Source: Eledone cirrhosa
Lineage: Eukaryota
NCBI GenBank assembly: GCA_964016885.1
Contig: OZ024745.1
Coordinates: 133,796,001-133,860,000 of the forward strand
Direction of reading: 5' to 3'
Length of the DNA stretch: 64,000 bases
Below are positions 4,078 to 60,963 of the stretch, in pieces; within the stretch, counting starts at the first letter, position 1; each line of letters opens with the position of its first letter. The notes beneath the pieces were generated by a model. It ran no database searches, had not been told where the DNA came from, and was given only the letters and a program-made list of their open reading frames with translations. The translations under genes were made by a program, and so were the position numbers.

Positions 4078-4212
4078 TCTACAGCTAAGTAAACTGGAGC
4101 AACGTGAAATAAAGTGTCTTGCTCAAGGAAACAACACATCACCTGGTCCTAGAATTAAACTCACAAGCTTTCGATTGCAAGCCCAATGCTCTAACCACTA
4201 AGTCATGCGCCT
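4078..4212 (-). mobile_element. tRNA-derived SINE (family B)
   Basis: Minus strand has a tRNA-like head followed by CCTTGAGCAAGACACTTTATTTCACG. Homologous to 54806-55014 and 56250-56458. Confidence 0.65.

Positions 4213-10244: not shown

Positions 10245-10245
<1 letters not shown>
8016..10245 (-). mobile_element. 5'-truncated R4/Dong-like non-LTR retrotransposon (RT plus restriction-like endonuclease), disrupted
   Basis: ORF 9363-10172 has RT motifs NYRPITCL, IDYKKAFDS, GIFQGDSLSP, YMDD, KYLG. ORF 8161-9261 has a CCHC knuckle (CRVC..ETIDHIISMC) and RHD, RPDI, EKLSKY endonuclease motifs. Internal deletion/frameshift near 9360. Flanked by (TTA)n on both sides. Confidence 0.88.
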
Positions 10246-10283
<38 letters not shown>

Positions 10284-10514
10284 AACTGGGAGAGGGCACT
10301 TGCCTTGGTGGTCAGGGCCACTGTGGTCTTTTAATGGGCTTTCTCCACAAATGTCCCTCGGAAGTCTCCCCCCTATTGGGGAATTTTTCTTTGTTATTTT
10401 ATTTCAACCTCCGTTTTTTTTTACACGCAGAAATGCCCATTTGTACCGTCCTGTATTGTCCTGTACTGTCCTTAATGTCTACTTTATGTAAACCCTTGTG
10501 GTTAATAAAGAAAA

Positions 10515-13530: not shown

Positions 13531-14805
13531 CTAACAGCGCTGCGATCGAATGTGGCTTTTTAGCCCAGCCAATGATCTAAAATGTCTTGCACAGAGTCGG
13601 CAACCAAGACATTCACTGGGAATAGCCGGCTGCGGTTGGAGTTCATATACTTTTGCATGTCGCTTGAGCCCTCCTGCTGATCTACATTCTCTACCACATG
13701 TTTGGCAAGCATGATGAGTAGCATCTCCAACAGCAGCCTGGTAGTCTACCTGTGGTCTTACTTTATGACTGCGAAGATGACTTTCGAGTCTAGCTTTGCT
13801 TAGGCAGAGTCTCGCACAGACGCTGCATGTCAGCACCATAGGAGGACCCTCGCCGTCTGGAAGTGCAACAGCAATGCCCTTCCTCACATCCCGCTTTACT
13901 TTCTCGTATGGGATTCGAGATGCCTCAAAGGCAACTTTTCCCTCATATACAGTCTTTCTCCATTTATTACGATCAGCAGCAATATTTTCCCATGTATCAG
14001 CAGAGATGTTAGCGTCTTTCAAAGAGGCTTTCAAGGAATCCTTAAACGTCTTTTTTGGTTTATGTGGCGGTCGTTTTCCTTTAACCAAATCTCCATAAAA
14101 GAGTTGTTTTGGTATTCTAGAATCCTCAATCCTGGCAAGGTGACCACTCCAGCGGAGTCGTTGCTTAATCACAAGAGCTTCTATACTGACACACATAGAG
14201 CTTTCCAAAATCTCGACATCACTGATGTGGTCCCTCCAGTGAACGCCATGGATCCGTCTGAGACACATCTGATGGAAACGCTCCAATTGCTTAAGGTGGT
14301 GTCGATATGTGACCCAGGTCTCGCAGGCATAAAGAAGACAAGAGAGCACACATGCCTTGTATACCTTTACCTTTGTCCTCCTGCATATGTCTCGCCGACC
14401 CCAGAGTCTCCTTTCTCGCTTTCCGAAAGCATCACTTGCTTTCCTAATCCTAAGTGAGATTTCACTGTCAAGGTTGCTGTATCGATTGACAGTGCTTCCC
14501 AGGTAGACAAACTGATCAACCACTCCAAGTCGTTTACCATACACATAGATATTTGGTTCAGTGTACTGGTTACCAGGGGCAGGTTGGTACATGACGACGG
14601 TTTTCTTGAGACTGACAGTCAATCCTAGGGCAGTGCAAGCGTCAGAAAATGCATTCAAAATGTGCTGCATATCACTCTCTGTGTGCGCTACAAGATCGCA
14701 ATCATCTGCATACAAGAGGTCTCTTATGATTGATGTAAATACTTTTGTCTTTGCAGCAAAGCGCCTGATGTTAAATATGCTGCTTGAGGTTCGATATCGG
14801 ATGTA
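13531..14805 (-). mobile_element. 5'-truncated RTE-clade LINE (RT C-terminal half plus three C2H2-like zinc fingers)
   Basis: LLYADD, F.YLGS, LLYACETW, RLRWSGH, RIPKQLFYG, followed by three CxxC...H motifs. Confidence 0.88.
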
Positions 14806-14969
14806 AACACACATATACATACATATATATATAGAGATGAGATTCTACAGGACTAGAACTGTTTCATTAGTCCTGTAGAATCTCATCTATATTAAAACTT
14901 GTATACTCTGCTATGTATTGAGTACCTTACTTACTGTGGTTACCTCCGATTCAACCCGGAATAACGTAC

Positions 14970-17469: not shown

Positions 17470-18150
17470 GACGCTCGGATATGGCTTTTCAAGCCTGCTA
17501 GAGACTTGCACTCCTTCACAGACTAACCACAACTATGGATCTTTTTGGCTTGAGGTCTTGCATCAGGTTGCCCGTGAACCCTCACAACACCGTGGAGATC
17601 ATAGTTCACTGGTTCTCTTTGAACATGGCTGCGACTGTGGCTCCTGAGACCAGATTTGCTCAAGCAAATTTTTCCACACTCAGGGCACTTCAATTCAATG
17701 GAGACACCGATCGTTTCGAGAGATAAACCAGGGCATTGCTTACGCACATCCCTTTTGATCGTCTCGTGCTCTATGCGCCTATTCTCAAACATATGGACCC
17801 CATCATTCACCATTCCACACCAAGTTTCTCTTTCAAGAGCTTCTATCTCCCAGTCAGCCACCATCAAACCAGTTTTTTTCAATGAGTCCTTTACACAATC
17901 CTTGAGTCGGAGCCTTGACTTGTGAGGTGGTCTCTTACCCTTACAAAGCTCGCCATACAAAAGATGTTTCGATCATCCTCCATTCTGCACAGGTGTCCAG
18001 TCCATCACAAATGCCGTTGGTGGATGATACTCTCAGTGCTCCAACACTCACTTCTCTCAAGGACCTCAACATCACTCACATGCATCTGCCTCTTGATACC
18101 GAGCATCTTTCGGAGACACTGCTGGTGAAACGGTTCCAGTCTATGGATAT
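17470..18150 (-). mobile_element. RTE-clade LINE 3' fragment, frameshifted
   Basis: YGELCKGKRPPHK...CPECGKICLSKSGLRSH and ECKSLAGLKSHIR. Related to the 13531-14805 element. Confidence 0.8.
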
Positions 18151-22110: not shown

Positions 22111-22409
22111 TTTTATTTACACGGTTTTCTAATTTTGGAGGTAGGTTATATTGTAATTAAAATACAAATTCAAACCACATCTATATGGAACTAATAAGAA
22201 ACGAAAATAGAAATTTAGATTAAAAGCTGATCGCTTTTGAAACACATGCTTAGGTAACGAGGTGTCTCAGCACCAATCAAAATTTAAGTTTCATGAAACC
22301 AGGAAGAGTACAGCTAATTATGAAATTACAGTTAAGTGAAAATAAATAAAATATTCCAGGTGTGTTTGCCGGTGGTAAGTACACATAAACACGAATAGGT
22401 ATGCAAGCA

Positions 22410-24769: not shown

Positions 24770-24885
24770 CTATCTCTCCAAGATACCATCTTTGGCTAAA
24801 TCAATAGAAAAGTTAAATTGCAGTTCACATGTAGGTTTAGCTGGTCTCTTACTAGGTTTATAAGATATTTTACTGCTTGAGTGAT

Positions 24886-27800
24886 ATGAAGTCAATTTCT
24901 CACCAACAAACCGCACCAATACAGAAATCTAAGCCACTATATGATGTTGGTGAGCCCAACAGTCTAACTAGCACCACTCTCTCAATAATTAAATCTAAGC
25001 CACTATATGATATTGGTGAGCCCAACAGTCTAACTAGCACCACTGCCTCAATAATTAAATCTAAACCACTATATGATGTTGGTGAGACCAACAGTCTAAC
25101 TAGCACCACTCTATCATTAATTAAATCTAAGCCACTATATGATGTTGGTGTGCCCAACAGTCTAACTAGCACCACTCTATCATTAATTAAATCTAAGCCA
25201 CTATATGATGTTGGTGAGCCCAACAGTCTAACTAGCACCACTCCCTCAATAATTAAATCTAAGCTACTATATGATGTTGGTGAGCCCAACAGTCTAACTA
25301 GCACCACTCCCTCATTAATTAAGTCTAAGCCACTATATGATGTTGGTGAGCCCAACAGTCTAACTAGCACCACTCTATCATTAATTAAATCTAAGCCACT
25401 ATATGATGTTGGTGAGCCCAACAGTCTAACTAGGACCACTCACTCATTAATTAAATCTAAGCCACTATATGATGTTAGTGAGCCCAACAGTCTAACTAGC
25501 ACCACTCCCTCATTAATTAAATATAAGCCACTATATGATGTTGGTGAGCCCAACAGTCTAACTAGCACCACTCTCTCATTAATTAAATCTAAGCCACTAT
25601 ATGATGTTGGTGAGCCCAACAGTCTAACTAGCACCACTCTATCATTAATTAAATCTAAGCCACTATATGATGTTGGTGAGCCCAACAGTCTAACTAGCAC
25701 CACTCCCTCAATAATTAAATCTAAGCCACTATATGATGTTGGTGAGCCCAACAGTCTGACTAGCACCACTCTCTCATTAATTAAATCTAAGCCACTATAT
25801 GATGTTGGTGAGCCCAACAGTCTAACTAGCACCACTCCCTCAATAATTAAATCTAAGCTACTATATGATGTTGGTGAGCCCAACAGTCTAACTAGCACCA
25901 CTCTATCATTAATTAAATCTAAGCCACTATATGATGTTGGTGAGCCCAACAGTTTAACTAGCACCACTCTATCATTAATTAAATCTAAGCCACTATATGA
26001 TGTTGGTGAGCCCAACAGTCTAACTAGCACCACTCCCTCAATAATTAAGTCTAAGCCACTATATGATGTTGGTGAGTCCAACAGTCTAACTAGCACCACT
26101 CTCTCAATAATTAAATCTAAGCCACTATATGATGTTGGTGAGTCCAACAGTCTAACTAGCACCACTCCCTCAATAATTAAGTCTAAGCCACTATATGATG
26201 TTGGTGAGTCCAACAGTCTAACTAGCACCACTCTATCATTAATTAAATCTAAGCCACTATATGATGTTGGTGAGCCCAACAGTCTAACTAGCACCACTCC
26301 CTCAATAATTAAGTCTAAGCCACTATATGATGTTGGTGAGCCCAACAGTCTAACTAGCACCACTCTCTCAATAATTAAATCTAAGCCACTATATGATGTT
26401 GGTGAGCCCAACAGTCTAACTAGCACCACTCCCTCAATAATTAAATCTAAGCTACTATATGATGTTGGTGAGCCCAACAGTCTAACTAGCACCACTCTCT
26501 CAATAATTAAATCTAAGCCACTATATGATGTTGGTGAGCCCAACAGTCTAACTAGCACCACTCCCTCATTAATTATGTCTAAGCCACTATATGATGTTGG
26601 TGAGCCCAACAGTCTAACTAGTACCACTCTATCATTAATAAAATCTAAGCCACTATATGATGTTGGTGAGCCCAACAGTTTAACTAGCACCACTCTATCA
26701 TTAATTAAATCTAAGCCACTATATGATGTTGGTGAGCCCAACAGTCTAACTAGCACCACTCCCTCAATAATTAAATCTAAGCCACTATATGATGTTGGTG
26801 AGCCGAACAGTCTAACTAGCACCACTCCCTCAATAGTTAAGTCTAAGCCATTATATGATGTTGGTGAGTCCAACAGTCTAACCAGCACCACTCTCTCAAT
26901 AATTATGTCTAAGCCACTATATGATGTTGGTGAGCCCAACAGTCTAACTAGCACCACTCTATCATTAATAAAATCTAAGCCACTATATGATGTTGGTGAC
27001 CCCAACAGTTTAACTAGCACCACCCTATCATTAATTAAATCTAAGCCACTATATGATGTTGGTGAGCCCAACAGTCTAACTAGCACCACTCCCTCATTAA
27101 TTAAGTCTATGCCACTATATGATGTTGGTGAGCCCAACAGTCTAACTAGCACCACTCTATCATTAATTAAATCTAAGCCACTATATGATGTTGGTGAGCC
27201 CAACAGTCTAACTAGCACCACTCTATCATTAATTAAATATAAGCCACTATATGATGTTGGTGAGCCCAACAGTCTAACTAGCACCACTCTATCATTAATT
27301 AAATCTAAGCCACTATATGATGTTGGTGAGCCCAACAGTCTAACTAGCACCACTCTATCATTAATTAAATCTAAGCCACTATATGATGTTGGTGAGCCCA
27401 ACAGTCTAACTAGCACCACTCTATCATTAATTAAATCTAAGCCACTATATGATGTTGGTGAGCCCAACAGTCTAACTAGCACCACTCCCTCAATAATTAA
27501 ATCTAAGCCATTATATGATGTTGGTGAGCCCAACAGTCTAACTAGCACCACTCTCTCATTAATTAAATCTAAGCCACTATATGATGTTGGTGAGCCCAAC
27601 AGTCTAACTAGCACCACTCCCTCAATAATTAAATCTAAGCTACTATATGATGTTGGTGAGCCCAACAGTCTAACTAGCACCACTCTATCATTAATTAAAT
27701 CTAAGCCACTATATGATGTTGGTGAGCCCAACAGTCTAACTAGCACCACTCCCTCATTAATTGAATATAAGCCACTATATGATGTTGGTGAGCCGAACAG

Positions 27801-30800
27801 TCTAACTAGCACCACTCTATCATTAATTAAATCTAAGCCACTATATGATGTTGGTGAGCCCAACAGTCTAACTAGCACCACTCTATCATTAATTAAATCT
27901 AAGCCACTATATGATGTTGGTGAGCCCAACAGTCTAACTAGCACCACTCCCTCAATAATTAAATCTAAGCCACTATATGATGTTGGTGAGCCCAACAGTC
28001 TAACTAGCACCACTCTCTCATTAATTAAATCTAAGCCACTATATGATGTTGGTGAGCCGAACAGTCTAACTAGCACCACTCTATCATTAATTAAATCTAA
28101 GCCACTATATGATGTTGGTGAGCCCAACAGTCTAACTAGCACCACTCTATCATTAATTAAATCTAAGCCACTATATGATGTTGGTGAGCCCAACAGTCTA
28201 ACTAGCACCACTCCCTCAATAATTAAATCTAAGCCACTATATGATGTTGGTGAGCCCAACAGTCTAACTAGCACCACTCTCTCATTAATTAAATCTAAGC
28301 CACTATATGATGTTGGTGAGCCCAACAGTCTAACTAGCACCACTCCCTCAATAATTAAATCTAAGCTACTATATGATGTTGGTGAGCCCAACAGTCTAAC
28401 TAGCACCACTCTATCATTAATTAAATCTAAGCCACTATATGATGTTGGTGAGCCCAACAGTCTAACTAGGACCACTCACTCATTAATTAAATCTAAGCCA
28501 CTATATGATGTTGGTGAGCCCAACAGTCTAACTAGCACCACTCCCTCATTAATTAAATATAAGCCACTATATGATGTTGGTGAGCCCAACAGTCTAACTA
28601 GCACCACTCTATCATTAATTAAATCTAAGCCACTATATGATGTTGGTGAGCCCAACAGTCTAACTAGCACCACTCCCTCAATAATTAAATCTAAGCCACT
28701 ATATGATGTTGGTGAGCCCAACAGTCTAACTAGCACCACTCTCTCATTAATTAAATCTAAGCCACTATATGATGTTGGTGAGCCCAACAGTCTAACTAGC
28801 ACCACTCCCTCAATAATTAAATCTAAGCCACTATATGATGTTGGTGAGCCCAACAGTCTCACTAGCACCACTCTATCATTAATTAAATCTAAGCCACTAT
28901 ATGATGTTGGTGAGCCCAACAGTCTAACTAGGACCACTCACTCATTAATTAAATCTTAGCCACTATATGAAGTTGGTGAGCCCAACAGTCTAACTAGCAC
29001 CACTCCCTCATTAATTAAATATAAGCCACTATATGATGTTGGTTAGCCCAACAGTCTAACTAGCACCACTCTATCATTAATTAAATATAAGCCACTATAT
29101 GATGTTGGTGAGCCCAACAGTCTAACTAGCACCACTCCCTCAATAATTAAGTCTAAGCCACTATATGATGTTGGTGAGTCCAACAGTCTAACTAGCACCA
29201 CTCCCTCAATAATTAAATCTAAGCCACTGTATGATGTTGGTGAGCCCAACAGTCTAACTAGCACCACTCCCTCAATAATTAAATCTAAGCTACTATATGA
29301 TGTTGGTGAGCCCAACAGTCTAACTAGCACCACTCCCTCATTAATTAAGTCTAAGCCACTATATGATGTTGGTGAGCCCAACAGTCTAACTAGCACCACT
29401 CTATCATTAATTAAATCTAAGCCACTATATGATGTTGGTGAGCCCAACAGTCTAACTAGGACCACTCACTCATTAATAAAATCTAAGCCACTATATGATG
29501 TTAGTGAGCCCAACAGTCTAACTAGCACCACTCCCTCATTAATTAAATATAAGCCACTATATGATGTTGGTGAGCCCAACAGTCTAACTAGCACCACTCT
29601 CTCATTAATTAAATCTAAGCCACTATATGATGTTGGTGAGCCCAACAGTCTAACTAGCACCACTCTCTCAATAATTAAATCTAAGCCACTATATGATGTT
29701 GGTGAGCCCAACAGTCTAACTAGCACCACTCCCTCAATAATTAAATCTAAGCTACTATATGATGTTGGTGAGCCCAACAGACTAACTAGCACCACTCTCT
29801 CAATAATTAAATCTAAGCCACTATATGATGTTGGTGAGCCCAACAGTCTAACTAGCACCACTCCCTCATTAATTGAATATAAGCCACTATATGATGTTGG
29901 TGAGCCGAACAGTCTAACTAGCACCACTCTATCATTAATTAAATCTAAGCCACTATATGATGTTGGTGAGCCCAACAGTCTAACTAGCACCACTCTATCA
30001 TTAATTAAATCTAAGCCACTATATGATGTTGGTGAGCCCAACAGTCTAACTAGCACCACTCCCTCAATAATTAAATCTAAGCCACTATATGATGTTGGTG
30101 AGCCCAACAGTCTGACTAGCACCACTCTCTCATTAATTAAATCTAAGCCACTATATGATGTTGGTGAGCCCAACAGTCTAACTAGCACCACTCCCTCAAT
30201 AATTAAATCTAAGCTACTATATGATGTTGGTGAGCCCAACAGTCTAACTAGCACCACTCTATCATTAATTAAATCTAAGCCACTATATGATGTTGGTGAG
30301 CCCAACAGTTTAACTAGCACCACTCTATCATTAATTAAATCTAAGCCACTATATGATGTTGGTGAGCCCAACAGTCTAACTAGCACCACTCCCTCAATAA
30401 TTAAGTCTAAGCCACTATATGATGTTGGTGAGTCCAACAGTCTAACTAGCACCACTCTCTCAATAATTAAATCTAAGCCACTATATGATGTTGGTGAGTC
30501 CAACAGTCTAACTAGCACCACTCCCTCAATAATTAAGTCTAAGCCACTATATGATGTTGGTGAGTCCAACAGTCTAACTAGCACCACTCTATCATTAATT
30601 AAATCTAAGCCACTATATGATGTTGGTGAGCCCAACAGTCTAACTAGCACCACTCCCTCAATAATTAAGTCTAAGCCACTATATGATGTTGGTGAGCCCA
30701 ACAGTCTAACTAGCACCACTCTCTCAATAATTAAATCTAAGCCACTATATGATGTTGGTGAGCCCAACAGTCTAACTAGCACCACTCCCTCAATAATTAA

Positions 30801-33800
30801 ATCTAAGCTACTATATGATGTTGGTGAGCCCAACAGTCTAACTAGCACCACTCTCTCAATAATTAAATCTAAGCCACTATATGATGTTGGTGAGCCCAAC
30901 AGTCTAACTAGCACCACTCCCTCATTAATTATGTCTAAGCCACTATATGATGTTGGTGAGCCCAACAGTCTAACTAGCACCACTCTATCATTAATAAAAT
31001 CTAAGCCACTATATGATGTTGGTGAGCCCAACAGTTTAACTAGCACCACTCTATCATTAATTAAATCTAAGCCACTATATGATGTTGGTGAGCCCAACAG
31101 TCTAACTAGCACCACTCCCTCAATAATTAAATCTAAGCCACTATATGATGTTGGTGAGCCGAACAGTCTAACTAGCACCACTCCCTCAATAGTTAAGTCT
31201 AAGCCATTATATGATGTTGGTGAGTCCAACAGTCTAACCAGCACCACTCTCTCAATAATTATGTCTAAGCCACTATATGATGTTGGTGAGCCCAACAGTC
31301 TAACTAGCACCACTCTATCATTAATAAAATCTAAGCCACTATATGATGTTGGTGAGCCCAACAGTTTAACTAGCACCACCCTATCATTAATTAAATCTAA
31401 GCCACTATATGATGTTGGTGAGCCCAACAGTCTAACTAGCACCACTCCCTCATTAATTAAGTCTATGCCACTATATGATGTTGGTGAGCCCAACAGTCTA
31501 ACTAGCACCACTCTATCATTAATTAAATCTAAGCCACTATATGATGTTGGTGAGCCCAACAGTCTAACTAGCACCACTCTATCATTAATTAAATATAAGC
31601 CACTATATGATGTTGGTGAGCCCAACAGTCTAACTAGCACCACTCTATCATTAATTAAATCTAAGCCACTATATGATGTTGGTGAGCCCAACAGTCTAAC
31701 TAGCACCACTCTATCATTAATTAAATCTAAGCCACTATATGATGTTGATGAGCCCAACAGTCTAACTAGCACCACTCCCTCAATAATTAAATCTAAGCTA
31801 CTATATGATGTTGGTGAGCCCAACAGTCTAACTAGCACCACTCCCTCATTAATTAAGTCTAGGCCACTATATGATGTTGGTGAGCCCAACAGTCTAACTA
31901 GCACCACTCTATCATTAATTAAATCTAAGCCACTATATGATGTTGGTGAGCCCAACAGTCTAACTAGGACCACTCACTCATTAATTAAATCTAAGCCACT
32001 ATATGATGTTGGTGAGCCCAACAGTCTAACTAGCACCACTCCCTCATTAATTAAATATAAGCCACTATATGATGTTGGTGAGCCCAACAGTCTAACTAGC
32101 ACCACTCTATCATTAATTAAATCTAAGCCACTATATGATGTTGGTGAGCCCAACAGTCTAACTAGCACCACTCCCTCATTAATTGAATATAAGCCACTAT
32201 ATGATGTTGGTGAGCCGAACAGTCTAACTAGCACCACTCTATCATTAATTAAATCTAAGCCACTATATGATGTTGGTGAGCCCAACAGTCTAACTAGCAC
32301 CACTCTATCATTAATTAAATCTAAGCCACTATATGATGTTGGTGAGCCCAACAGTCTAACTAGCACCACTCCCTCAATAATTAAATCTAAGCCACTATAT
32401 GATGTTGGTGAGCCCAACAGTCTAACTAGCACCACTCTCTCATTAATTAAATCTAAGCCACTATATGATGTTGGTGAGCCGAACAGTCTAACTAGCACCA
32501 CTCTATCATTAATTAAATCTAAGCCACTATATGATGTTGGTGAGCCCAACAGTCTAACTAGCACCACTCTATCATTAATTAAATCTAAGCCACTATATGA
32601 TGTTGGTGAGCCCAACAGTCTAACTAGCACCACTCCCTCAATAATTAAATCTAAGCCACTATATGATGTTGGTGAGCCCAACAGTCTAACTAGCACCACT
32701 CTCTCATTAATTAAATCTAAGCCACTATATGATGTTGGTGAGCCCAACAGTCTAACTAGCACCACTCCCTCAATAATTAAATCTAAGCTACTATATGATG
32801 TTGGTGAGCCCAACAGTCTAACTAGCACCACTCTATCATTAATTAAATCTAAGCCACTATATGATGTTGGTGAGCCCAACAGTCTAACTAGCACCACTCA
32901 CTCATTAATTAAATCTAAGCCACTATATGATGTTGGTGAGCCCAACAGTCTAACTAGCACCACTCCCTCATTAATTAAATATAAGCCACTATATGATGTT
33001 GGTGAGCCCAACAGTCTAACTAGCACCACTCTATCATTAATTAAATCTAAGCCACTATATGATGTTGGTGAGCCCAACAGTCTAACTAGCACCACTCCCT
33101 CAATAATTAAATCTAAGCCACTATATGATGTTGGTGAGCCCAACAGTCTAACTAGCACCACTCTCTCATTAATTAAATCTAAGCCACTATATGATGTTGG
33201 TGAGCCCAACAGTCTAACTAGCACCACTCCCTCAATAATTAAATCTAAGCCACTATATGATGTTGGTGAGCCCAACAGTCTAACTAGCACCACTCTATCA
33301 TTAATTAAATCTAAGCCACTATATGATGTTGGTGAGCCCAACAGTCTAACTAGGACCACTCACTCATTAATTAAATCTTAGCCACTATATGAAGTTGGTG
33401 AGCCCAACAGTCTAACTAGCACCACTCCCTCATTAATTAAATATAAGCCACTATATGATGTTGGTTAGCCCAACAGTCTAACTAGCACCACTCTATCATT
33501 AATTAAATATAAGCCACTATATGATGTTGGTGAGCCCAACAGTCTAACTAGCACCACTCCCTCAATAATTAAGTCTAAGCCACTATATGATGTTGGTGAG
33601 TCCAACAGTCTAACTAGCACCACTCCCTCAATAATTAAATCTAAGCCACTGTATGATGTTGGTGAGCCCAACAGTCTAACTAGCACCACTCCCTCAATAA
33701 TTAAATCTAAGCTACTATATGATGTTGGTGAGCCCAACAGTCTAACTAGCACCACTCCCTCATTAATTAAGTCTAAGCCACTATATGATGTCGGTGAGCC

Positions 33801-36800
33801 CAACAGTCTAACTAGCACCACTCTATCATTAATTAAATCTAAGCCACTATATGATGTTGGTGAGCCCAACAGTCTAACTAGGACCACTCACTCATTAATT
33901 AAATCTAAGCCACTATATGATGTTAGTGAGCCCAACAGTCTAACTAGCACCACTCCCTCATTAATTAAATATAAGCCACTATATGATGTTGGTGAGCCCA
34001 ACAGTCTAACTAGCACCACTCTCTCATTAATTAAATCTAAGCCACTATATGATGTTGGTGAGCCCAACAGTCTAACTAGCACCACTCTCTCAATAATTAA
34101 ATCTAAGCCACTATATGATGTTGGTGAGCCCAACAGTCTAACTAGCACCACTCCCTCAATAATTAAATCTAAGCTACTATATGATGTTGGTGAGCCCAAC
34201 AGACTAACTAGCACCACTCTCTCAATAATTAAATCTAAGCCACTATATGATGTTGGTGAGCCCAACAGTCTAACTAGCACCACTCCCTCATTAATTGAAT
34301 ATAAGCCACTATATGATGTTGGTGAGCCGAACAGTCTAACTAGCACCACTCTATCATTAATTAAATCTAAGCCACTATATGATGTTGGTGAGCCCAACAG
34401 TCTAACTAGCACCACTCTATCATTAATTAAATCTAAGCCACTATATGATGTTGGTGAGCCCAACAGTCTAACTAGCACCACTCCCTCAATAATTAAATCT
34501 AAGCCACTATATGATGTTGGTGAGCCCAACAGTCTGACTAGCACCACTCTCTCATTAATTAAATCTAAGCCACTATATGATGTTGGTGAGCCCAACAGTC
34601 TAACTAGCACCACTCCCTCAATAATTAAATCTAAGCTACTATATGATGTTGGTGAGCCCAACAGTCTAACTAGCACCACTCTATCATTAATTAAATCTAA
34701 GCCACTATATGATGTTGGTGAGCCCAACAGTTTAACTAGCACCACTCTATCATTAATTAAATCTAAGCCACTATATGATGTTGGTGAGCCCAACAGTCTA
34801 ACTAGCACCACTCCCTCAATAATTAAGTCTAAGCCACTATATGATGTTGGTGAGTCCAACAGTCTAACTAGCACCACTCTCTCAATAATTAAATCTAAGC
34901 CACTATATGATGTTGGTGAGTCCAACAGTCTAACTAGCACCACTCCCTCAATAATTAAGTCTAAGCCACTATATGATGTTGGTGAGTCCAACAGTCTAAC
35001 TAGCACCACTCTATCATTAATTAAATCTAAGCCACTATATGATGTTGGTGAGCCCAACAGTCTAACTAGCACCACTCCCTCAATAATTAAGTCTAAGCCA
35101 CTATATGATGTTGGTGAGCCCAACAGTCTAACTAGCACCACTCTCTCAATAATTAAATCTAAGCCACTATATGATGTTGGTGAGCCCAACAGTCTAACTA
35201 GCACCACTCCCTCAATAATTAAATCTAAGCTACTATATGATGTTGGTGAGCCCAACAGTCTAACTAGCACCACTCTCTCAATAATTAAATCTAAGCCACT
35301 ATATGATGTTGGTGAGCCCAACAGTCTAACTAGCACCACTCCCTCATTAATTATGTCTAAGCCACTATATGATGTTGGTGAGCCCAACAGTCTAACTAGC
35401 ACCACTCTATCATTAATAAAATCTAAGCCACTATATGATGTTGGTGAGCCCAACAGTTTAACTAGCACCACTCTATCATTAATTAAATCTAAGCCACTAT
35501 ATGATGTTGGTGAGCCCAACAGTCTAACTAGCACCACTCCCTCAATAATTAAATCTAAGCCACTATATGATGTTGGTGAGCCGAACAGTCTAACTAGCAC
35601 CACTCCCTCAATAGTTAAGTCTAAGCCATTATATGATGTTGGTGAGTCCAACAGTCTAACCAGCACCACTCTCTCAATAATTATGTCTAAGCCACTATAT
35701 GATGTTGGTGAGCCCAACAGTCTAACTAGCACCACTCTATCATTAATAAAATCTAAGCCACTATATGATGTTGGTGAGCCCAACAGTTTAACTAGCACCA
35801 CCCTATCATTAATTAAATCTAAGCCACTATATGATGTTGGTGAGCCCAACAGTCTAACTAGCACCACTCCCTCATTAATTAAGTCTATGCCACTATATGA
35901 TGTTGGTGAGCCCAACAGTCTAACTAGCACCACTCTATCATTAATTAAATCTAAGCCACTATATGATGTTGGTGAGCCCAACAGTCTAACTAGCACCACT
36001 CTATCATTAATTAAATATAAGCCACTATATGATGTTGGTGAGCCCAACAGTCTAACTAGCACCACTCTATCATTAATTAAATCTAAGCCACTATATGATG
36101 TTGGTGAGCCCAACAGTCTAACTAGCACCACTCTATCATTAATTAAATCTAAGCCACTATATGATGTTGATGAGCCCAACAGTCTAACTAGCACCACTCC
36201 CTCAATAATTAAATCTAAGCTACTATATGATGTTGGTGAGCCCAACAGTCTAACTAGCACCACTCCCTCATTAATTAAGTCTAGGCCACTATATGATGTT
36301 GGTGAGCCCAACAGTCTAACTAGCACCACTCTATCATTAATTAAATCTAAGCCACTATATGATGTTGGTGAGCCCAACAGTCTAACTAGGACCACTCACT
36401 CATTAATTAAATCTAAGCCACTATATGATGTTGGTGAGCCCAACAGTCTAACTAGCACCACTCCCTCATTAATTAAATATAAGCCACTATATGATGTTGG
36501 TGAGCCCAACAGTCTAACTAGCACCACTCTATCATTAATTAAATCTAAGCCACTATATGATGTTGGTGAGGCCAACAGTCTAACTAGCACCACTCTATCA
36601 TTAATTAAATCTAAGCCACTATATGATGTTGGTGAGCCCAACAGTCTAACTAGCACCACTCCCTCAATAATTAAATCTAAGCCACTATATGATGTTGGTG
36701 AGCCCAACAGTCTAACTAGCACCACTCTCTCATTAATTAAATCTAAGCCACTAGATGATGTTGGTGAGCCCAACAGTCTAACTAGCACCACTCCCTCAAT

Positions 36801-39800
36801 AATTAAATCTAAGCCACTATATGATGTCGGTGAGCCCAACAGTCTAACTAGCACCACTCTATCATTAATTAAATCTAAGCCACTATATGATGTTGGTGAG
36901 CCCAATAGTCTAACTAGGACCACTCACTCATTAATTAAATCTAAGCCACTATATGATGTTGGTGAGCCCAACAGTCTAACTAGCACCACTCCCTCATTAA
37001 TTAAATATAAGCCACTATATGATGTTGGTGAGCCCAACAGTCTAACTAGCACCACTCTCTCATTAATTAAATATAAGCCACTATATGATGTTGGTGAGCC
37101 CAACAGTCTAACTAGCACCACTCTCTCATTAATTAAATCTAAGCCACTATATAATGTTGGTGAGCCCAACAGTCTAACTAGCACCACTCCCTCAATAATT
37201 AAATCTAAGCTACTATATGATGTTGGTGAGCCCAACAGTCTAACTAGCACCACTCTATCATTAATTAAATCTAAGCCACTATATGATGTTGGTGAGCCCA
37301 ACAGTTTAACTAGCACCACTCTATCATTAATTAAATCTAAGCCACTATATGATGTTGGTGAGCCCAACAGTCTAACTAGCACCACTCCCTCAATAATTAA
37401 GTCTAAGCCACTATATGATGTTGGTGAGTCCAACAGTCTAACTAGCACCACTCTCTCAATAATTAAATCTAAGCCACTATATGATGTTGGTGAGCCCAAC
37501 AGTCTAACTAGCACCACTCCCTCAGTAATTAAATCTAAGCCACTATATGATGTTGGTGAGCCCAAAAGTCTAACTAGTACCACTCCCTCAATAATTAAAT
37601 CTAAGCTACTATATGATGTTGGTGAGCCCAACAGTCTAACTAGCACCACTCTCTCAATAATTAAATCTAAGCCACTATATGATGTTGGTGAGCCCAACAG
37701 TCTAACTAGCACCACTCCCTCATTAATTATGTCTAAGCCACTATATGATGTTGGTGAGCCCAACAGTCTAACTAGCACCACTCTATCATTAATAAAATCT
37801 AACCCACTATATGATGTTGGTGAGCCCAACAGTTTAACTAGCACCACTCTATCATTAATTAAATCTAAGCCACTATATGATGTTGGTGAGCCCAACAGTC
37901 TAACTAGCACCACTCTATCATTAATTAAATCTAAGCCACTATATGATGTTGGTGAGTCCAACAGTCTAACCAGCACCACTCTCTCAATAATTAAATCTAA
38001 GCCACTATATGATGTTGGTGAGCCCAACAGTCTAACTAGCACCACTGCCTCAATAATTAAATCTAAGCTACTATATGATGTTGGTGAGCCCAACAGTCTA
38101 ACTAGCACCACTCTCTCAATAATTAAGTCTAAGCCACTATATGATGTTGGTGAGCCCAACAGTCTAACTAGCACCACTCCCTCAATAATTAAATCTAAGC
38201 TACTACATGATGTTGGTGAGCCCAAAAGTCTAACTAGCACCACTCCCTCATTAATTAAGTCTGAGCCACTATATGATGTTGGTGAGCCCAACAGTCTAAC
38301 TAGCACCACTCTATCATTAATTAAATCTAAGCCACTATATGATGCTGGTGAGCCCAACAGTCTAACTAGCACCACTCTATCATTAATTAAATATAAGCCA
38401 CTATATGATGTTGGTGAGCCCAACAGTCTAACTAGCACCACTCTATCATTAATTAAATCTAAGCCACTATATGATGTTGGTGAGCCCAACAGTCTAACTA
38501 GCACCACTCTATCATTAATTAAATCTAAGCCACTATATGATGTTGGTGAGCCCAACAGTCTAACTAGCACCACTCCCTCAATAATTAAATCTAAGCTACT
38601 ATATGATGTTGGTGAGCCCAACAGTCTACCTAGCACCACTCCCTCATTAATTAAGTCTAAGCCACTATATGATGTTGGTGAGCCCAACAGTCTAACTAGC
38701 ACCACTCTATCATTAATTAAATCTAAGCCACTATATGATGTTGGTGAGCCCAACAGTCTAACTAGGACCACTCACTCATTAATTAAATCTAAGCCACTAT
38801 ATGATGTTGGTGAGCCCAACAGTCTAACTAGCACCACTCCCTCACTAATTAAATATAAGCCACTATATGATGTTGGTGAGCCCAACAGTCTAACTAGCAC
38901 CACTCTATCATTAATTAAATCTAAGCCACTATATGATGTTGGTGAGCCCAACAGTCTAACTAGCACCACTCCCTCATTAATTAAGTCTAAGCCACTATAT
39001 GATGTTGGTGAGCCCAACAGTCTAACTAGCACCACTCTCTCATTAATTAAATCTAAGCCACTAGATGATGTTGGTGAGCCCAACAGTCTAACTAGCACCA
39101 CTCCCTCAGTAATTAAATCTAAGCCACTATATGATGTTGGTGAGCCCAACAGTCTAACTAGCACCACTCTATCATTAATTAAATCTAAGCCACTATATGA
39201 TGTTGGTGAGCCCAACAGTCTAACTAGGACCACTCACTCATTAATTAAATCTAAGCCACTATATGATGTTGGTGAGCCCAACAGTCTAACTAGCACCACT
39301 CCCTCATTAATTAAATATAAGCCACTATATGATGTTGGTGAGCCTAACAGTCTAACTAGCACCACTCTCTCATTAATTAAATATAAGCCACTATATGATG
39401 TTGGTGAGCCCAACAGTCTAACTAGCACCACTCCCTCATTAATTAAGTCTAAGCCACTATATGATGTTGGTGAGCCCAACAGTCTAACTAGCACCACTCT
39501 ATCATTAATTAAATCTAAGCCACTATATGATGTTGGTGAGCCCAACAGTCTAACTAGGACCACTCCCTCAATAATTAAATCTAAGCCACTATATGATGTT
39601 GGTGAGCCCAACAGTCTAACTAGCACCACTCCCTCATTAATTGAATATAAGCCACTATATGATGTTGGTGAGCCCAACAATCTAACTAGCACCACTCTAT
39701 CATTAATTAAATCTAAGCCACTATATGATGTTGGTGAGCCCAACAGTCTAACTAGCACCACTCTATCATTAATTAAATCTAAGCCACTATATGATGTTGG

Positions 39801-41415
39801 TGAGCCCAACAGTCTAACTAGCACCACTCCCTCAATAATTAAATCTAAGCCACTATATGATGTTGGTGAGCCCAACAGTCTAACTAGCACCACTCTCTCA
39901 TTAATTAAATCTAAGCCACTATATGATGTTGGTGAGCCCAACAGTCTAACTAGCACCACTCTATCATTAATTAAGTCTAAGCCACTATATGATGTTGGTG
40001 AGCCCAACAGTCTAACTAGCACCACTCCCTCAATAATTAAATCTAAGCTACTATATGATGTTGGTGAGCCCAACAGTCTAACTAGCACCACCCCCTCATT
40101 AATTAAGTCTAAGCCACTATATGATGTTGGTGAGCCCAACAGTCTAACTAGCACCACTCTATCATTAATTAAATCTAAGCCACTATATGATGTTGGTGAG
40201 CCCAACAGTCTATCTAGGACCACTCACTCATTAATTAAATCTAAGCCACTATATGATGTTGGTGAGCCCAACAGTCTAACTAGCACCACTCCCTCATTAA
40301 TTAAATATAAGCCACTATATGATGTTGGTGAGCCCAACAGTCTAACTAGCACCACTCCCTCAATAATTAAATCTGAGCCACTATATGATGTTGGTGAGCC
40401 CAACAGTCTAACTAGCACCACTCTCTCAATAATTAAATCTAAGCCACTATATGATGTTGGTGAGCCCAACAGTCTAACTAGCACCACTCCCTCATTAATT
40501 AAATATAAGCCACTATATGATGTTGGTGAGCCCAACAGTCTAACTAGCACCACTCTATCATTAATTAAATCTAAGCCACTATATGATGTTGGTGAGCCCA
40601 ACAGTCTAACTAGCACCACTGCCTCAACAATTAAATCTAAACCACTATATGATGTTGGTGAGCCCAACAGTCTAACTAGCACCACTCCCTCAATAATTAA
40701 ATCTAAGCTACTATATGATGTTGGTGAGCCCAACAGTCTAACTAGCACCACTCCCTCATTAATTAAGTCTAAGCCACTATATGATGTTGGTGAGCCCAGC
40801 AGTCTAACTAGCACCACTCTATCATTAATTAAATCTAAGCCACTATATGATGTTGGTGAGCCCAACAGTCTAACTAGGACCACTCACTCATTAATTAAAT
40901 CTAAGCCACTATATGATGTTGGTGAGCCCAACAGTCTAACTAGCACCACTCCCTCATTAATTAAATATAAGCCACTATATGATGTTGGTGAGCCCAACAG
41001 TCTAACTAGCACCACTCTATCATTAATTAAATCTAAGCCACTATATGATGTTGGTGAGCCCAACAGTCTAACTAGCACCACTCCCTCAATAATTAAATCT
41101 AATCCACTATATGATGTTGGTGAGCCCAACAGTCTAACTAGCACCACTCCCTCATTAATTAAATCTAAGCCACTATATGATGTTGGTGAGCCCAACAGTC
41201 TAACTAGCACCACTCTCTCATTAATTAAATCTAAGCCACTATATGATGTTGGTGAGCCCAAGAGTCTTACTAGCACCACTCACTCATTAATTAAATCTAA
41301 GCCACTATATGATGTTGGTGAGCCCAACAGTCTAACTAGCACCACTTCCTCAATAATTAAATCAAAGAATCATTGCAATCATTATCGAGACAATAAGAAG
41401 CCACGTTCTCAGTAA
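24886..41415 (+). CDS. candidate giant Ser/Thr/Pro-rich (mucin-like) repeat exon or pseudo-exon, unit KSKPLYDVGEPNSLTSTT(L/P)S(L/I)I, interrupted by 4 TAG codons
   Basis: One frame across about 5500 codons with non-repeat in-frame flanks, and A|GTAAGT at 41411/41412. Stops at 28957, 29044, 33379 and 33466. Coding status is unproven. Confidence 0.35.
24925..41358. repeat. 66-bp tandem repeat array, 249 units, with higher-order duplications
   Basis: Unit AAATCTAAGCCACTATATGATGTTGGTGAGCCCAACAGTCTAACTAGCACCACTC(T/C)(A/C)TCA(T/A)TAATT. 16434 bp / 66 = 249, and phase is kept end to end. Confidence 0.98.
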
Positions 41416-41442
41416 GTAAATATCACTTACAATGATAATAAT

Positions 41443-41622
41443 GATTGTTTCTTCTTTCGGCACAAGGCAAGCAAATAATCAGTGCATTACTGGTATTTTA
41501 TTTTATCGACCCCGTAAGGATGAAAGACAAAGTTAACCTCGACAGAATTTGAACTCAGAATGTCAAGGGCCGCAATTCTATGCGTCAAAGCATGGCGTCC
41601 GACCCTCTACCGATACTGCCAA
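41443..41622 (-). mobile_element. tRNA-derived SINE (family A)
   Basis: Reverse complement of the family A core. Confidence 0.7.
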
Positions 41623-42081
41623 TATGATAATAATAATAATGGTTTCAATAAGTTATTAGACCAAATGAAAAACACAATCCAAGAGAACAATTTATGGTGT
41701 AGGTCAGCCTTAGAACGCTGGTCTTTTGTCGGTATCACAGTTTTTATGTAAGAACTAAGTTAATATTAAACTTCATTATATCATCTAGAAGTATATCATA
41801 TGTCAAGGAGTGCGACGGCTTATCAACTTCTTATACCAAGCTCCGTTCTACGATATTATATAATTTAATTACAATCCGTTTCAGTAAATAATGTTAGTAT
41901 ATTTACAGAACATTCCTATCTTTATAAATCCTCTTCAAACAGGTGGATATTTCCTTCTTATTTCTTTTCCTTTTTAACAAAGAATAACATTACATTTTTT
42001 TTTCTTTTCGGCAGAAATTCTGTATAGTATATCCAAATTCTATAGATGATTATTTTCACTTCACGTAAAAATGGCGAAGGT

Positions 42082-46204: not shown

Positions 46205-46470
46205 CCACCGTCTTGAGAGGGTCGTGGGATAAGAGTCGTCAAACACTTCTTCCAGTGGGTCTTCTCAGAAGCAACCGTCTCCAACTTGACCCCCAAGCGA
46301 GACCAACCAAGTCCATGGATGTTATCCAACCATCTTGCTCGGGGTCTACCACTTTGTCACCTGTCCGTTGCTTTTGCCCGTAAAATATGTCCAGCGATTC
46401 TTTCCTAGAACATTCTAACCATATAGCCATAGTATCGGAGCTGTGATCTCTCAAATCGAAAAAGTAGCGG
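46205..46470 (-). mobile_element. RTE-like LINE 3' fragment
   Basis: Homologous to 6159-6455 (GTTATCCAACCATCTTGC, AGCAACCGTCTCCAACT). Confidence 0.6.
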
Positions 46471-46482
46471 CTTTACCTGTAA

Positions 46483-46679
46483 TGACTCTCGCTTCACCTG
46501 GAGTGACTCTCGCTTCACCTAGAGTGACTCTCGCTTCACCTGGAGTGACTCTCGCTTCACTTAGAGTGACTCTCGCTTCACCTGGAGTGACTCTCGCTTC
46601 ACCTGGAGTGACTCTCGCTTCACCTAGAGTGACTCTCGCTTCACCTAGAGTGACTCTCGCTTCACCTGGAGTGACTCTC
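46483..46679. repeat. 21-bp minisatellite, about 9.5 copies
   Basis: (GTGACTCTCGCTTCACCT(G/A)GA)n. Confidence 0.95.
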
Positions 46680-52403: not shown

Positions 52404-54791
52404 TTAGGCATATGACTTTTTTACAACCCCATATGAGCATGCTATTTTCTAATGAGGTTTTTGTCTTAAAGAAAGAATTACAGTAGTTTTTTCGTAAATT
52501 TTGAAAGAAATTCTTGCACATACTAAATTATTTTTTTATTTTTTTGTAATTAGCCAGTCCCATAAAATAAATATCTAAAACAATAAATTATGAAAATAAA
52601 AAAAATTATTTTAATTATTAGTTAAACAAAACTTAATCTCTAAGGTTCTACTACTTTTACAAAATGGCAAAAGGTCCTGCACAACTTTACAGCTCGCTCA
52701 GCGCAAATGTTCGAGCGTTGCGTCACAATTGGAGATTCTTCATTAGAGCAAAGTTTTCTGACGGTGTTTGCAGCCTTTTCACACTTGGCCTTAATTATTT
52801 GGTCAATGAGTTTCTGCTTGCTGTCAGCTCTATACAGTTGACTTGAGAACCACATTTTTCCCCACATTCCGCAGATGTATTTGGCACCAGCGCGCAGCTT
52901 CGCTCGTTCATCAGGCATCAAAATAAACCCAAGCAACAAATAAATTGCTCGGCTATTCCAATGAGCATTGTGCAAATTAGGTAATTTCTTAAAATTTATT
53001 TTAGGAAACGCACCGTTTTCAAAGAAATGTTGCACGGCTATCATGAGATGCTGAAGGAAATCCATGTCACTTCTCCAGCGCGTCGGCGTTTCATTAATTT
53101 CCGTCGTTCCATTTGAAAAGTTCTGCTTCAGTTCGTCATAGTTCTTTAAAATGGCCTCAACAAAGTAATAATTGATATATGGCGAAGTTGTTTTACTACT
53201 ATATAGTTGATCAAAATAAACTTTCAATGCACGGTCTAAAATGTGGTGCTGGCATCCAACATATAATGACTTGCTATAACCGCGACGCGCGAACTCACTG
53301 TTGAGCATGGCAACAACTCCTGCCTTTTTGCCGGTATTGACACTAGTTGTGTCGGAGACTATCATCACGATAGATTCCCACAGTTCATATTTGTCAATAA
53401 CTTCTTTCAATCCATTAAATATAGTAAGAGCCTTTCCATCGGTTAATGCCATCGGCTTCTGGCGTATTTCTTTCTCATCATTTTTTATCACTACAACCTG
53501 ATATTCTACGTCTCTCATTCGTTTTCCATCAAAATGAAGGCTCCATTTTTCCCTTTTGAGTTCATTTTTCCATTTTTCCATGAGTTTCTCACCTTCTCTG
53601 ATAACTGCTTTGTGCACTGCCGACTGGCTCGGGGTGCTCACCTTAATACCACCACTTTTAAATTCGTTGCAAACTGCTGCTGCTTTTCTACTAGGTAATT
53701 TAGTATTTCTTACTAGGTTAACGGCATAAGTTGTGTTTTCTCTTTTTCGTTTTTTTTATGGTGAAGGTGAAGGTTTGTAATCGCTGGTATTTGTATCGGT
53801 GTCGCTGTAACTTTCATTTGAGTCCAGATGAATGTATGAGCAGGATGGCTTATCATGATCTAGTTCTTGTTTTTTGTTTTTAATTCTCTTAGAAGGGTGG
53901 ATTTTCTTTTCACTGTCTATTTTCATTGTAGTATACCCAACATTTACACAACTCTCAACTTGCTTTTCATAAAATGACAAATCTTCGGCTGTTCCATATC
54001 CCATATCTTTTTGTAATGTCAAATAGATTATTGAAATTCGCAGAGCCAGGTCTTTTTTACTTCTTTTTCCTTTTTTTTTTAATTATTTTTTTCAATTTTT
54101 CGAGGTATTGAAAGTTTGTTGATAGTTGGAAAGCTGAACTGTTCCCATAAACTTTCACATTCTCCAGTAATTATCTTAATTCTTTTTTTGGTATTTTTCT
54201 CTTCAGCAGCAAGATTGATATATCTATCAACGATCTGTTGCTCAGTAGGTAGCTTGCATAATTCGATTAATGAACTTTGAATTTTCTTTTTCCTAGATTT
54301 CTTTCTCTTCTCAAAATGACAAATATTTTGTGCCCAAATCTTTTTACTTTCCTCTTTAGCAACAGGATTTTTATACATCTGAAATTTATAATATTAATAT
54401 AATATAATTATAAATAGTAAAACATTAATAAATATACCTCGCAAATTTTAATTTATTCTATTTATGTATTTTATGAGTTTTATGAACAGATTAAACTGAC
54501 AAATAAGTGATGAACAAGCAATAAAGTTGATCCATTAAACAATTTGAAGAAGATTACTATATTTTATAAACTGTTAAATTGCACACTATATTTTGTATTA
54601 CATACACACGTATATTGTATATGCAATTCTATATTAGTTAATCAATATTAAAGAATCTACCTTGTGCAAGAGTTTTTTTAAATTCTAATATTTTTTAACA
54701 TGCTCACAAGTATTTTCTAGTAAAAGGTTCATCTGAAAATGGCATGCTCATTTATTTTTTTAACAAAAGTGTACTTTAGGAATATGCCTAA
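52404..54791 (-). mobile_element. near full-length hATm-like DNA transposon with frameshifted transposase
   Basis: TIRs TTAGGCATAT...ATATGCCTAA with inner ATGAGCATGC/GCATGCTCAT, inserted in (TA)n. ORF pieces 54079-54378, 53756-54022 and 52640-53641 carry LHFDGK, DTTSVNTG, GCQHHILD and ERAVK. Confidence 0.8.
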
Positions 54792-55260: not shown

Positions 55261-55372
<112 letters not shown>

Positions 55373-55636
55373 CGGAAAAAATGAAACGATATTTCATTTC
55401 CCACTCTTAGTACGGCTGTTACTTAAATATAAGTATGTACACGTACATACATATATGTATACCGACGTACAGTAGTATGTATATATATATATACATACAT
55501 GCACACATATATATATGCACGTATGGATTCACCGAACATTTATTATAATGCTCGGTGTGTTTGTAAACAAACATCCCGTATTAAGCCGTAGTGTCTAGCA
55601 ACCACCGTTGCTCGTTTGTTCAACACTGACAAAGGA

Positions 55637-55679
55637 ACGCTGTACTAGTTTCAAGTTTGTTAGCTATCGTCAGCAACGT
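55637..55679 (-). ncRNA. minimal type I hammerhead motif (left arm of 275-bp inverted repeat)
   Basis: Minus strand: acgttg-CTGACGA-tagctaacaaactt-GAAA-ctag-TA-cagcgt. Confidence 0.6.
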
Positions 55680-55868
55680 ATACCTTCCTGCCAGATTGTT
55701 GAACGTATATACTTACCTTATGCATATTAACGGCTGAGTAACCCAATTTGCATATCGAGTGGGTTAATCGGCCGGGTGCACCGAAAACGATAAACGGAAA
55801 AAATGAAACGATATTTCATTTCCCACTCTTCGTACGGCTGTTACTTCAACAATCTGGCAGGAAGGTAT

Positions 55869-55911
55869 ACGTTGCTGACGATAGCTAACAAGCTTGAAAC
55901 TAGTACAGCGT
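55869..55911 (+). ncRNA. minimal type I hammerhead motif (right arm)
   Basis: acgttg-CTGACGA-tagct-aaca-agctt-GAAA-ctag-TA-cagcgt. 6-bp stem I and palindromic stem III. Confidence 0.72.
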
Positions 55912-56114
55912 TCCTTTGTCAGTGTTGAACAAACGAGCAACGGTGGTTGCTAGACACTACAGCTTAATACGGGATGTTTGTTTACAAACACACCGAGCAT
56001 TATAATAAATGTTCGGTGAATCCATACGTGCATATATATATGTGTGCATGTATGTATATATATATATACATACTACTGTACGTCGGTATACATATATGTA
56101 TGTACGTGTACATA

Positions 56115-60015: not shown

Positions 60016-60298
60016 GTTTAAATACTGTCCTCTGGTCCGTGGATCACTGGTTAGCGACCGTTGGTTTAGAATATATACTGGCCTGTGGTCCGCGGATCAT
60101 TGGTTGGCGACCGTTGGTTTAAATACTGCCCTGTGGTCCGCGGATCACTGGTTGGCGACCGTTCGTTTAAATACTGCCCTGTGGTCCGCGGATCACTGGT
60201 TGGCGACCGTTGGTTTAAATACTGCTCTGTGGTCCGTGGATCACTGGTTGGCGACCGTTGGTTTAAATACTGCCTTGTGGTCCGTGGATCACTGGTTG
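59982..60298. repeat. 48-bp minisatellite derived from the hAT terminus, about 6.5 copies
   Basis: (CTGTGGTCCGCGGATCACTGGTTGGCGACCGTTGGTTTAAATACTGCC)n contains the TIR and the adjacent TSD-like octamer. Confidence 0.92.
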
Positions 60299-60963
60299 GT
60301 ATATTACCCACATAACACTATTTTACTATTTTCCTGAAGTTCAAACAGGGCATATGTTTGTGTTTTGTATTTCACTATATTTTCATGAGCAGCATTGTGA
60401 TTGTTCGTTTGTTGTTTTTATCCTTATATGTTAATACCATTTCGACATTTTTTCTGAGCAGAGTCTATAAGTTTTTTATCCATCTTTCTTTATGATGCGT
60501 AAGTGGTTTTCTTTGATTTTCACGTCAATTTCGACAGATATATCGGTGAGTAGTATAGCCATGACAATCTTACATATCAGATTGTGTCAATACTTATACT
60601 ACATATTTTCCATTTTTATACGAAAGTGACTGATATAATATTTTGTTGTTATTTCGCCTTGATCCCACAAATCTGTTGTCAAAGGTGTTCCAATCCCAAC
60701 ACTTATCCATGGCATTCATTCCCAACCAACCCATCTTTTCTATATATATATATATATGTATATATATAAATATATATATATGTATATATATATATGTGTG
60801 GGGGGGGGTGCCCAGCATGGCCTCAGCCGGATGGTTGGAACGGGTATATATTATATATATATCTGAAGGAAGGGAGTATGGGAGTTTCAGGGCATCCTCT
60901 TTTCCAAAGTGGATTAATTCAAATTTATCATCGTTCAGCAGCATATTATTCTTTTCCGCCAAT

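Follow-up and report, generated by a model that had tools for sequence, protein, structure and literature searches.

A 66-bp tandem array of Eledone cirrhosa that may be a broken mucin-like repeat exon

Is a tandem array that holds register from its first unit to its last the exon of a giant repeat protein or a minisatellite derived from a stop-free unit? This question is raised by a 66-bp array of the octopod Eledone cirrhosa, which lies in the 64,000-nucleotide stretch analysed here (the window: contig OZ024745.1 of assembly GCA_964016885.1, positions 133,796,001 to 133,860,000, forward strand) and which an earlier note, made from the letters alone, had read as one continuous ~5500-residue frame, perhaps the giant exon of a mucin-like protein. 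Our analysis contradicts the continuous frame: four in-frame TAG codons interrupt it, so the proposed ~5,500-residue protein is impossible from this assembly. What may stand of the claim is an origin as a mucin-like exon, to which the lack of indels, the Ser/Thr codons, the composition and the flanks lend real though indirect support. We tentatively favour, at a probability of somewhat over 40%, that the array is a mucin-like variable number tandem repeat (VNTR) exon of an octopod gene, recently broken by stops, so that this copy would be a young pseudogene, or else an allele that is truncated or null. A coding history is put only slightly ahead of a non-coding one, as its signals are each weak and yet agree on one frame.

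The array and its stop codons

The array occupies positions 24925-41367 (+) with 249.1 copies at 94% matches, or 249 full units plus 9 bp, and the 249 units are of 75 distinct kinds. Register is kept in every unit and wrap-around alignment gives 0 indel types, which bears out the earlier view of 249 x 66 bp free of frameshifts. On the + strand, the unit consensus translates to KSKPLYDVGEPNSLTSTTLSLI, 22 residues with 7/22 Ser+Thr and 2-3 Pro just as the earlier note had counted, and a predicted peptide of the repeat unit is SKPLYDVGEPNSLTSTTLSLIK. Over the whole array translation, Ser+Thr come to 31%, Pro to 10.2%, and Leu, Ile, Val, Tyr, Met and Phe together to 31%; the unit frame is open on the - strand as well. 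In pattern searches of the 3.0-Gb genome all exact 35-mer matches (168/168) and all matches at up to three mismatches (249/249) fall inside the window, and a protein search of the genome with the repeat gave 143 matches, all within the array, with 150 of 167 candidates scored. Dispersal of the unit as an ordinary satellite, named earlier as a sign against an exon, is ruled out by these counts, which place the unit at a single locus. Since read depth of the unit contig in one sequencing run, to all appearance of the same species, is 87x that of unique flank, and the assembled array predicts 73-111, the array is not an assembly artefact. Its window is placed on a chromosome-scale contig of 134.7 Mb, 0.9 Mb short of the end. 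The array stops abruptly on either side, with 9-bp near-direct repeats (8/9 bp identical) at its ends, and its flanks are essentially single-copy, except for 24818-24858. Neither this array nor any comparable octopus mucin repeat was found described in a literature search.

The first stop of the frame, a TAG at 28957-28959 in unit 62, takes the place of a Lys codon in other units, and the second, at 29044-29046 in unit 63, that of a Glu codon; the TAGs at 33379-33381 (unit 129) and 33466-33468 (unit 130) are their respective duplicates, all four being on the + strand. They leave open pieces of 1367, 1444 and 2648 residues plus two short ones, and the uninterrupted frame of a mucin repeat exon coding for a PTS domain (rich in Pro, Thr and Ser) is missing here. 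Blocks within the array are duplicated at lags of ~62-67 units, and one higher-order duplication spans 67 units (4422 bp): units 43-109 (27697-32118, +) are the first copy and hold both original stops, while units 110-176 (32119-36540, +) are the second, with 4 differences in 4422 bp. The four stops are therefore two changes in adjacent units which were copied by this duplication, and because of the copying they are not single read errors. Private changes cluster, with five of the nine interior ones in units 60-66 (P 0.007), two of them nonsense; the stops are private to one tract, and the clustered changes may stem from one event.

Coding past or minisatellite

Do the units vary as those of an exon would? 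In the 664 kb around the array, 23 control arrays gave 41 indel types per 273 substitution types, which predicts 8.7 indel types for the array when pooled (P 0.0002), or 2.6 from the six arrays with the lowest rates (P 0.07), vs 0 observed. Of the seven controls that have 15 or more substitution types, one is free of any indel. A control by which neighbouring arrays, too, seemed to lack indels (TRF 0% in 11/17 and 20/36) was rejected, as TRF rounds and 4/7 such arrays lose register; wrap-around indel counts reverse its conclusion. Variants that lose Ser or Thr number 5 of 34 possible, vs 10.3 expected (P 0.015). The mask of Ser/Thr codons is the least variable among 66 circular shifts, and of 30 tests by class and frame the Ser/Thr class in the + frame has the lowest P(low), with other residues neutral. 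As for composition, an open frame with Ser+Thr of at least 7 and Pro of at least 2 is met in 1.7% of shuffled units and in 2/11 other local arrays whose period is divisible by 3, and the 10/22 codons of RNY type are reached by 4% of open shuffles, a signal that overlaps partly with the composition one. Shared variants are synonymous in 11/28 cases and private ones in 7/30, a trend only (Fisher P 0.26), as is the conservativeness of changes by BLOSUM (P 0.10).

The flanks speak for the same frame. As had been claimed, it reaches into unique sequence at both ends, namely through 23 open codons of a head at 24856-24924 (+), with an ATG at 24886, and 18 open codons of a tail at 41359-41411 (+), which starts with a 9-bp near-copy (8/9) of the unit start and is single-copy in the genome. 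The splice-like sites proposed to bound them are likewise present: an acceptor-like TAG at 24853-24855 (phase 0) and, from A|GTAAGT at 41411/41412, a donor-like GTAAGT at 41412-41417 (+, phase 2, score 5.9) that overlaps an in-frame TAA at 41413-41415. The joint chance that both flanks are open up to such sites is 0.4% (by pattern) or 1.2% (by approximate matrix); all our splice-site scores come from approximate matrices. The tail is covered at single-copy depth, over ~41357-41418 by bin arithmetic, by a contig from another organism (organism C), the match ending 7 nt past the donor. No cover was seen for the unit in organism C, nor for the tail in two further organisms (B and D), but gaps of this sort in contigs prove nothing; the unit does occur in tandem form, at depth 6-13, in sequencing runs of B and D, where it is indistinguishable from trace DNA of the present species and was not weighed.

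A good deal weighs against this coding past. Overall, the 58 substitution types comprise 18 synonymous, 38 non-synonymous and 2 stops vs 16.3, 39.6 and 2.06 expected from a permutation preserving mutation classes, a ratio of 0.89; the synonymous versus non-synonymous spectrum, which the earlier note had proposed as a check, reads as neutral in general, with the low Ser/Thr losses as a possible exception. Synonymous changes at Ser/Thr codons are low as well (3/17), so a cold spot at the level of the DNA may account for the Ser/Thr deficit, and two Ser-losing variants have come to occupy 20 and 11 of 182 units. Several of the tests were chosen after the data had been seen. A neighbouring array of 39 bp x 56 (L124:2323-4523) has no indel and a 758-residue open frame, with only 3/23 of its variants synonymous. 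Per 100 residues, Ser+Thr range from 26 to 38% and never get to 40%, and 31% of the repeat residues are hydrophobic. The acceptor scores 6.4 vs 13.1 for a real neighbouring acceptor and sits inside a dispersed repeat (700 matches at up to two mismatches, control 0; profile E 1.8e-8), donors within the units outscore the terminal one (6.7 vs 5.9; real neighbouring donor 7.9), and the conserved tail may stop merely because a very high-copy interspersed repeat, which we take to be SINE-like, begins directly 3' of it (41423-41630). No host-gene family was recognised by Pfam in 295/295 window frames of at least 45 residues, within 100 kb in 300 of 327 frames (the longest ones), or in 150 of 724 frames lying 100-300 kb away (among the longest, presumed transposons omitted). 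These negatives are weak, with two real exons of a neighbouring MIEAP-domain gene also escaping a match; what Pfam did match around the array are retroelement and transposon domains, the rest being repeat-inflated or sub-threshold. When 1.84 billion proteins were searched exhaustively with the head plus two units, only two matches came back, both repeat-inflated, and no relative beyond these was found although a related library holds an octopod orthologue of the neighbouring gene.

Could the array then be a non-coding giant minisatellite, intergenic or intronic, which was amplified at one locus from a stop-free 66-mer by slippage and unequal exchange, with splice-like sites that are there by chance? 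We see this as a possible reading, and the non-coding alternative that the earlier note had itself raised stays nearly as likely as the favoured one, given a neutral spectrum, a stop count that is exactly neutral and an acceptor that belongs to another, dispersed satellite. It is consistent with array growth having continued after the stops arose, and with searches that yielded neither gene nor homologue. Open frames, moreover, are cheap: 79-80% of shuffled 66-mers have one, so that an open frame by itself is no more than chance, both strands of the array are open, and of the 36 arrays in the 664 kb, the 12 whose period is a multiple of 3 are all open in one frame of their consensus, the 39-bp neighbour being stop-free over 758 residues with no coding signature. 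Sharp ends with 9-bp near-direct repeats also fit a pattern proposed for minisatellite origin in the portion of PMC2566889 consulted here. A minisatellite needs four uncommon chances, however: no indel (0.0002-0.07), few Ser/Thr losses (0.015), a PTS-like frame (0.02-0.18) and open flanks (~0.01). If it holds, the array is an ordinary though long minisatellite, and a warning that neither long open frames nor confident AlphaFold models of repeats are evidence of a gene.

For a mucin-like exon since broken, the following course may be envisaged. A 66-bp segment between the 9-bp near-direct repeats would first have been duplicated by slippage between them, and the block duplications seen at ~62-67-unit lags would have followed via unequal exchange or gene conversion. 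During this growth, as the variant statistics suggest, selection would have purged frameshifts and Ser/Thr losses while it tolerated changes at other residues. The five private changes of units 60-66, two of them nonsense, would then have arisen in one mutational event, before units 43-109 were duplicated together with their stops. In a transcript of the whole exon, translation is predicted to end 1357 residues after the ATG at 24886, or 1367 after the acceptor. The next junction would lie 12 kb further downstream, which would be expected to make the transcript a target of nonsense-mediated decay. Filaggrin offers known examples of nonsense alleles within a giant repeat exon. If so, the locus preserves an unknown mucin-like octopod gene as a copy that is dead or truncated; it would help annotation and give a dated record of the growth and breakage of such an exon, albeit one of a kind already known.

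Unit donors, other readings and the neighbourhood

An unlikely twist is offered by the units themselves, in which a donor-like TTG|GTGAGC site (first at 24947-24955, +, phase 1, score 6.7) recurs every 66 bp. Its G|GTGAG is intact in 240/249 units, among them 58 of units 1-61, and GT is kept in 247, whereas a comparable donor appears in only 3% of shuffled units. An exon that starts at 24856 could accordingly end at any of the 58 in-frame unit donors before the first stop, all of them phase 1 and 66 nt apart, the remainder of the array being intron. Each step would add one 22-residue unit, from 31 to ~1350 residues, and the product might be a mucin-like stalk of 1 to 61 repeats chosen by splicing alone, with the nonsense pair as its upper limit; we hold such a stalk to be just as improbable. 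The idea explains frame constraint and tolerated stops in one account, it agrees with unit donors that exceed the terminal one in score, and variant types are synonymous in 12/29 cases in units 1-61 vs 13/40 in units 177-249 (no significance test made). As a precedent, next-unit donor use in the ABCA7 VNTR, albeit out of frame, is described in the part of PMC5954066 drawn on here, and within the excerpts of the literature we searched for splice-tuned repeat length it was the only case found. Conservation of the donor window does not clearly exceed that of other parts of the unit (18th percentile), which is why we rate the idea low; units past 63 also lack indels, no downstream exon of phase 1 was identified, and the terminal donor and open tail are left to chance. 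Were unit donors used, splicing in a single individual, rather than DNA copy number, would govern the length variation of a repeat protein, and the array would matter much more.

The nearest gene identified, the MIEAP-domain gene, lies 268 kb downstream (+), with coding exons at L126:5185-5943 and ~L129:2671-3045 (+) that share 78% and 66% identity with Argonauta hians GAB1604782.1. At the start of the first coding exon is an acceptor, 25 nt ahead of the ATG, and hence the gene has an upstream exon. As this upstream exon is unlocated and splice-like sites stand at both array flanks, the array may be thought of as part of a non-coding exon, in a long non-coding RNA or a 5' untranslated leader of, for instance, this gene, where the splice sites would be real and the frame irrelevant. 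To our minds this is very improbable: it leaves the lack of indels and the Ser/Thr pattern unexplained, a 16-kb leader is extreme, and nothing ties the array to the MIEAP-domain gene. Least probable of all is a functional giant exon whose four UAGs would be turned into Trp codons through A-to-I editing by ADAR, for although coleoid cephalopods recode heavily, both nonsense changes are TAG (as are 3/9 possible single-base stops) and two adjacent stops are corrected by A-to-I editing in a fungal kinase (the part of PMC7306014 at hand), no stable structure surrounds the stops (z -0.02), all four sites would have to be edited on one molecule, and a literature search found no cephalopod case of premature-stop correction.

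Other leads to a host gene or protein family did not hold. Around the array 88 exon candidates were predicted in 264 kb by approximate splice matrices, none convincing among the 41 listed; after the ATG at 24886 no hydrophobic leader follows, and neither signal peptide, VWD nor other partner exon was found for the array. No VWD exon was found near it: among the VWD matches counted genome-wide, at least 72, the 2 found on this contig lie 66 Mb away, and SEA gave 0 matches in the genome, a search without a positive anywhere. Word-based protein searches with the array end returned none at E <= 0.1 (1629 candidates) and none at E <= 10 (8), both weak negatives. The match to Haliotis rufescens XP_048251834.1 (E 2e-6) consists of 7-9 bits per stretch summed across repeats, and a bacterial protein matched by the same query is repeat-inflated too. 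Residues ~208-455 of XP_048251834.1 hold a 25-residue repeat whose copies reproduce the final part of a Cys-rich domain and each close with Gly-Lys; to judge from the protein sequence, this may be a duplicated exon end together with its donor. FNIP/IP22 leucine-rich repeats, of 22-residue period and with the motif FGxxFN, were rejected after a PDB match at E 0.01 whose best stretch has 7 bits; no FNIP is seen at E <= 10 in 990 residues, and the genome has 2 FNIP matches, both away from the array. Pfam matches of repeat translations to DUF2785, PurT_C and ADAMTS_C are weak stretches summed, and occur on both strands. The ESM Atlas provided no lead (best score 0.87, recognition 907). An all-beta AlphaFold2 model of the repeat, without a PDB match at E <= 0.001, has a pLDDT of 78.4 on the + frame and an equal 78.4 on the - frame, and was rejected as repeat bias; a bias of AlphaFold2 toward confident models of repeats is described in the part of PMC11795689 consulted here.

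Repeats of other kinds surround the locus. The piece at 24818-24858 (+), which contains the proposed acceptor, is an eroded member of a dispersed minisatellite family of 102/105-bp units also seen at 3954-4086 of the window and in segments L080-L088. It has 99, 108, 158 and 54/56-bp derivatives, unit lengths mostly differing by 3 bp, and 700 matches genome-wide that are dense on contigs C20, C24, C25, C27 and C28; the 66-bp unit is unrelated to it, there being no profile match inside the array. Smaller minisatellites, both with open frames, are found at 46470-46679 (21 bp x 10) and 59981-60299 (48 bp x 6.5) of the window. Further out, long arrays of 21 bp x 418 (L106:3518 to L107:2290) and 32 bp x 163 (L068:8410 to L069:3627) both lose register, and the variant spectrum of the 39-bp x 56 array is not coding-like. 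LINE reverse transcriptase remnants with C2H2 tails (Pfam) lie at 8164-10403, 13534-14844 and 17526-17972 (-), and a broken frame at 52643-54393 (-) was labelled transposase-like by eye, with no Pfam match. Also by eye, we noted a perfect inverted repeat with 21-bp arms at ~14835-14888 and, at 55370-56000, a few hundred bases that are duplicated in both direct and inverted orientation. A unique 15-nt stretch at 22360-22374 (+), 2.5 kb before the array, is placed between an AG, weak as an acceptor, and a strong G|GTAAGT donor.

Comparison with known systems

Typical mucin PTS domains have at least 40% Ser+Thr, according to the part of PMC4948705 drawn on here, while looser screens, in the sections of PMC2515642 and PMC9417175 at hand, ask for repeats with Pro above 5% and Ser+Thr above 20-25%. 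With 10.2% Pro, 31% Ser+Thr and 249 repeats, the array passes the looser screens, and it differs from a typical PTS domain in its Ser+Thr below 40%, its 31% hydrophobic residues, its four stops and the lack of a partner exon found. In mammalian mucin repeats, again by the accessible part of PMC9417175, Ser/Thr losses are fewer and other residues near neutral; the head-to-tail in-frame repeats, the absence of frameshifts and the few Ser/Thr losses of the array, for which a cold spot in the DNA may also account, liken it to such an exonic mucin VNTR.

In the model of Haber and Louis, as cited in the portion of PMC2566889 consulted, minisatellites are born between short flanking repeats. The array, too, is a tandem of a unit within 10-100 bp at one locus with short flanking direct repeats (8/9 bp), and shares with non-coding minisatellites its interspersed variants, block duplications and variation that is neutral overall. 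Unlike the minisatellites nearby, it is longer and freer of indels than 35 arrays in the 664 kb, and its Ser/Thr codons are the least variable.

The ABCA7 intron-18 VNTR, in what PMC5954066 reports in the part drawn on here, uses the donor of its second unit and retains one unit. By approximate matrix, a 5' splice-site motif stands in nearly every unit of the array as well, here as a predicted donor. Whereas retention of the 25-bp ABCA7 unit shifts the frame, retention of the octopod 66-bp unit would keep it.

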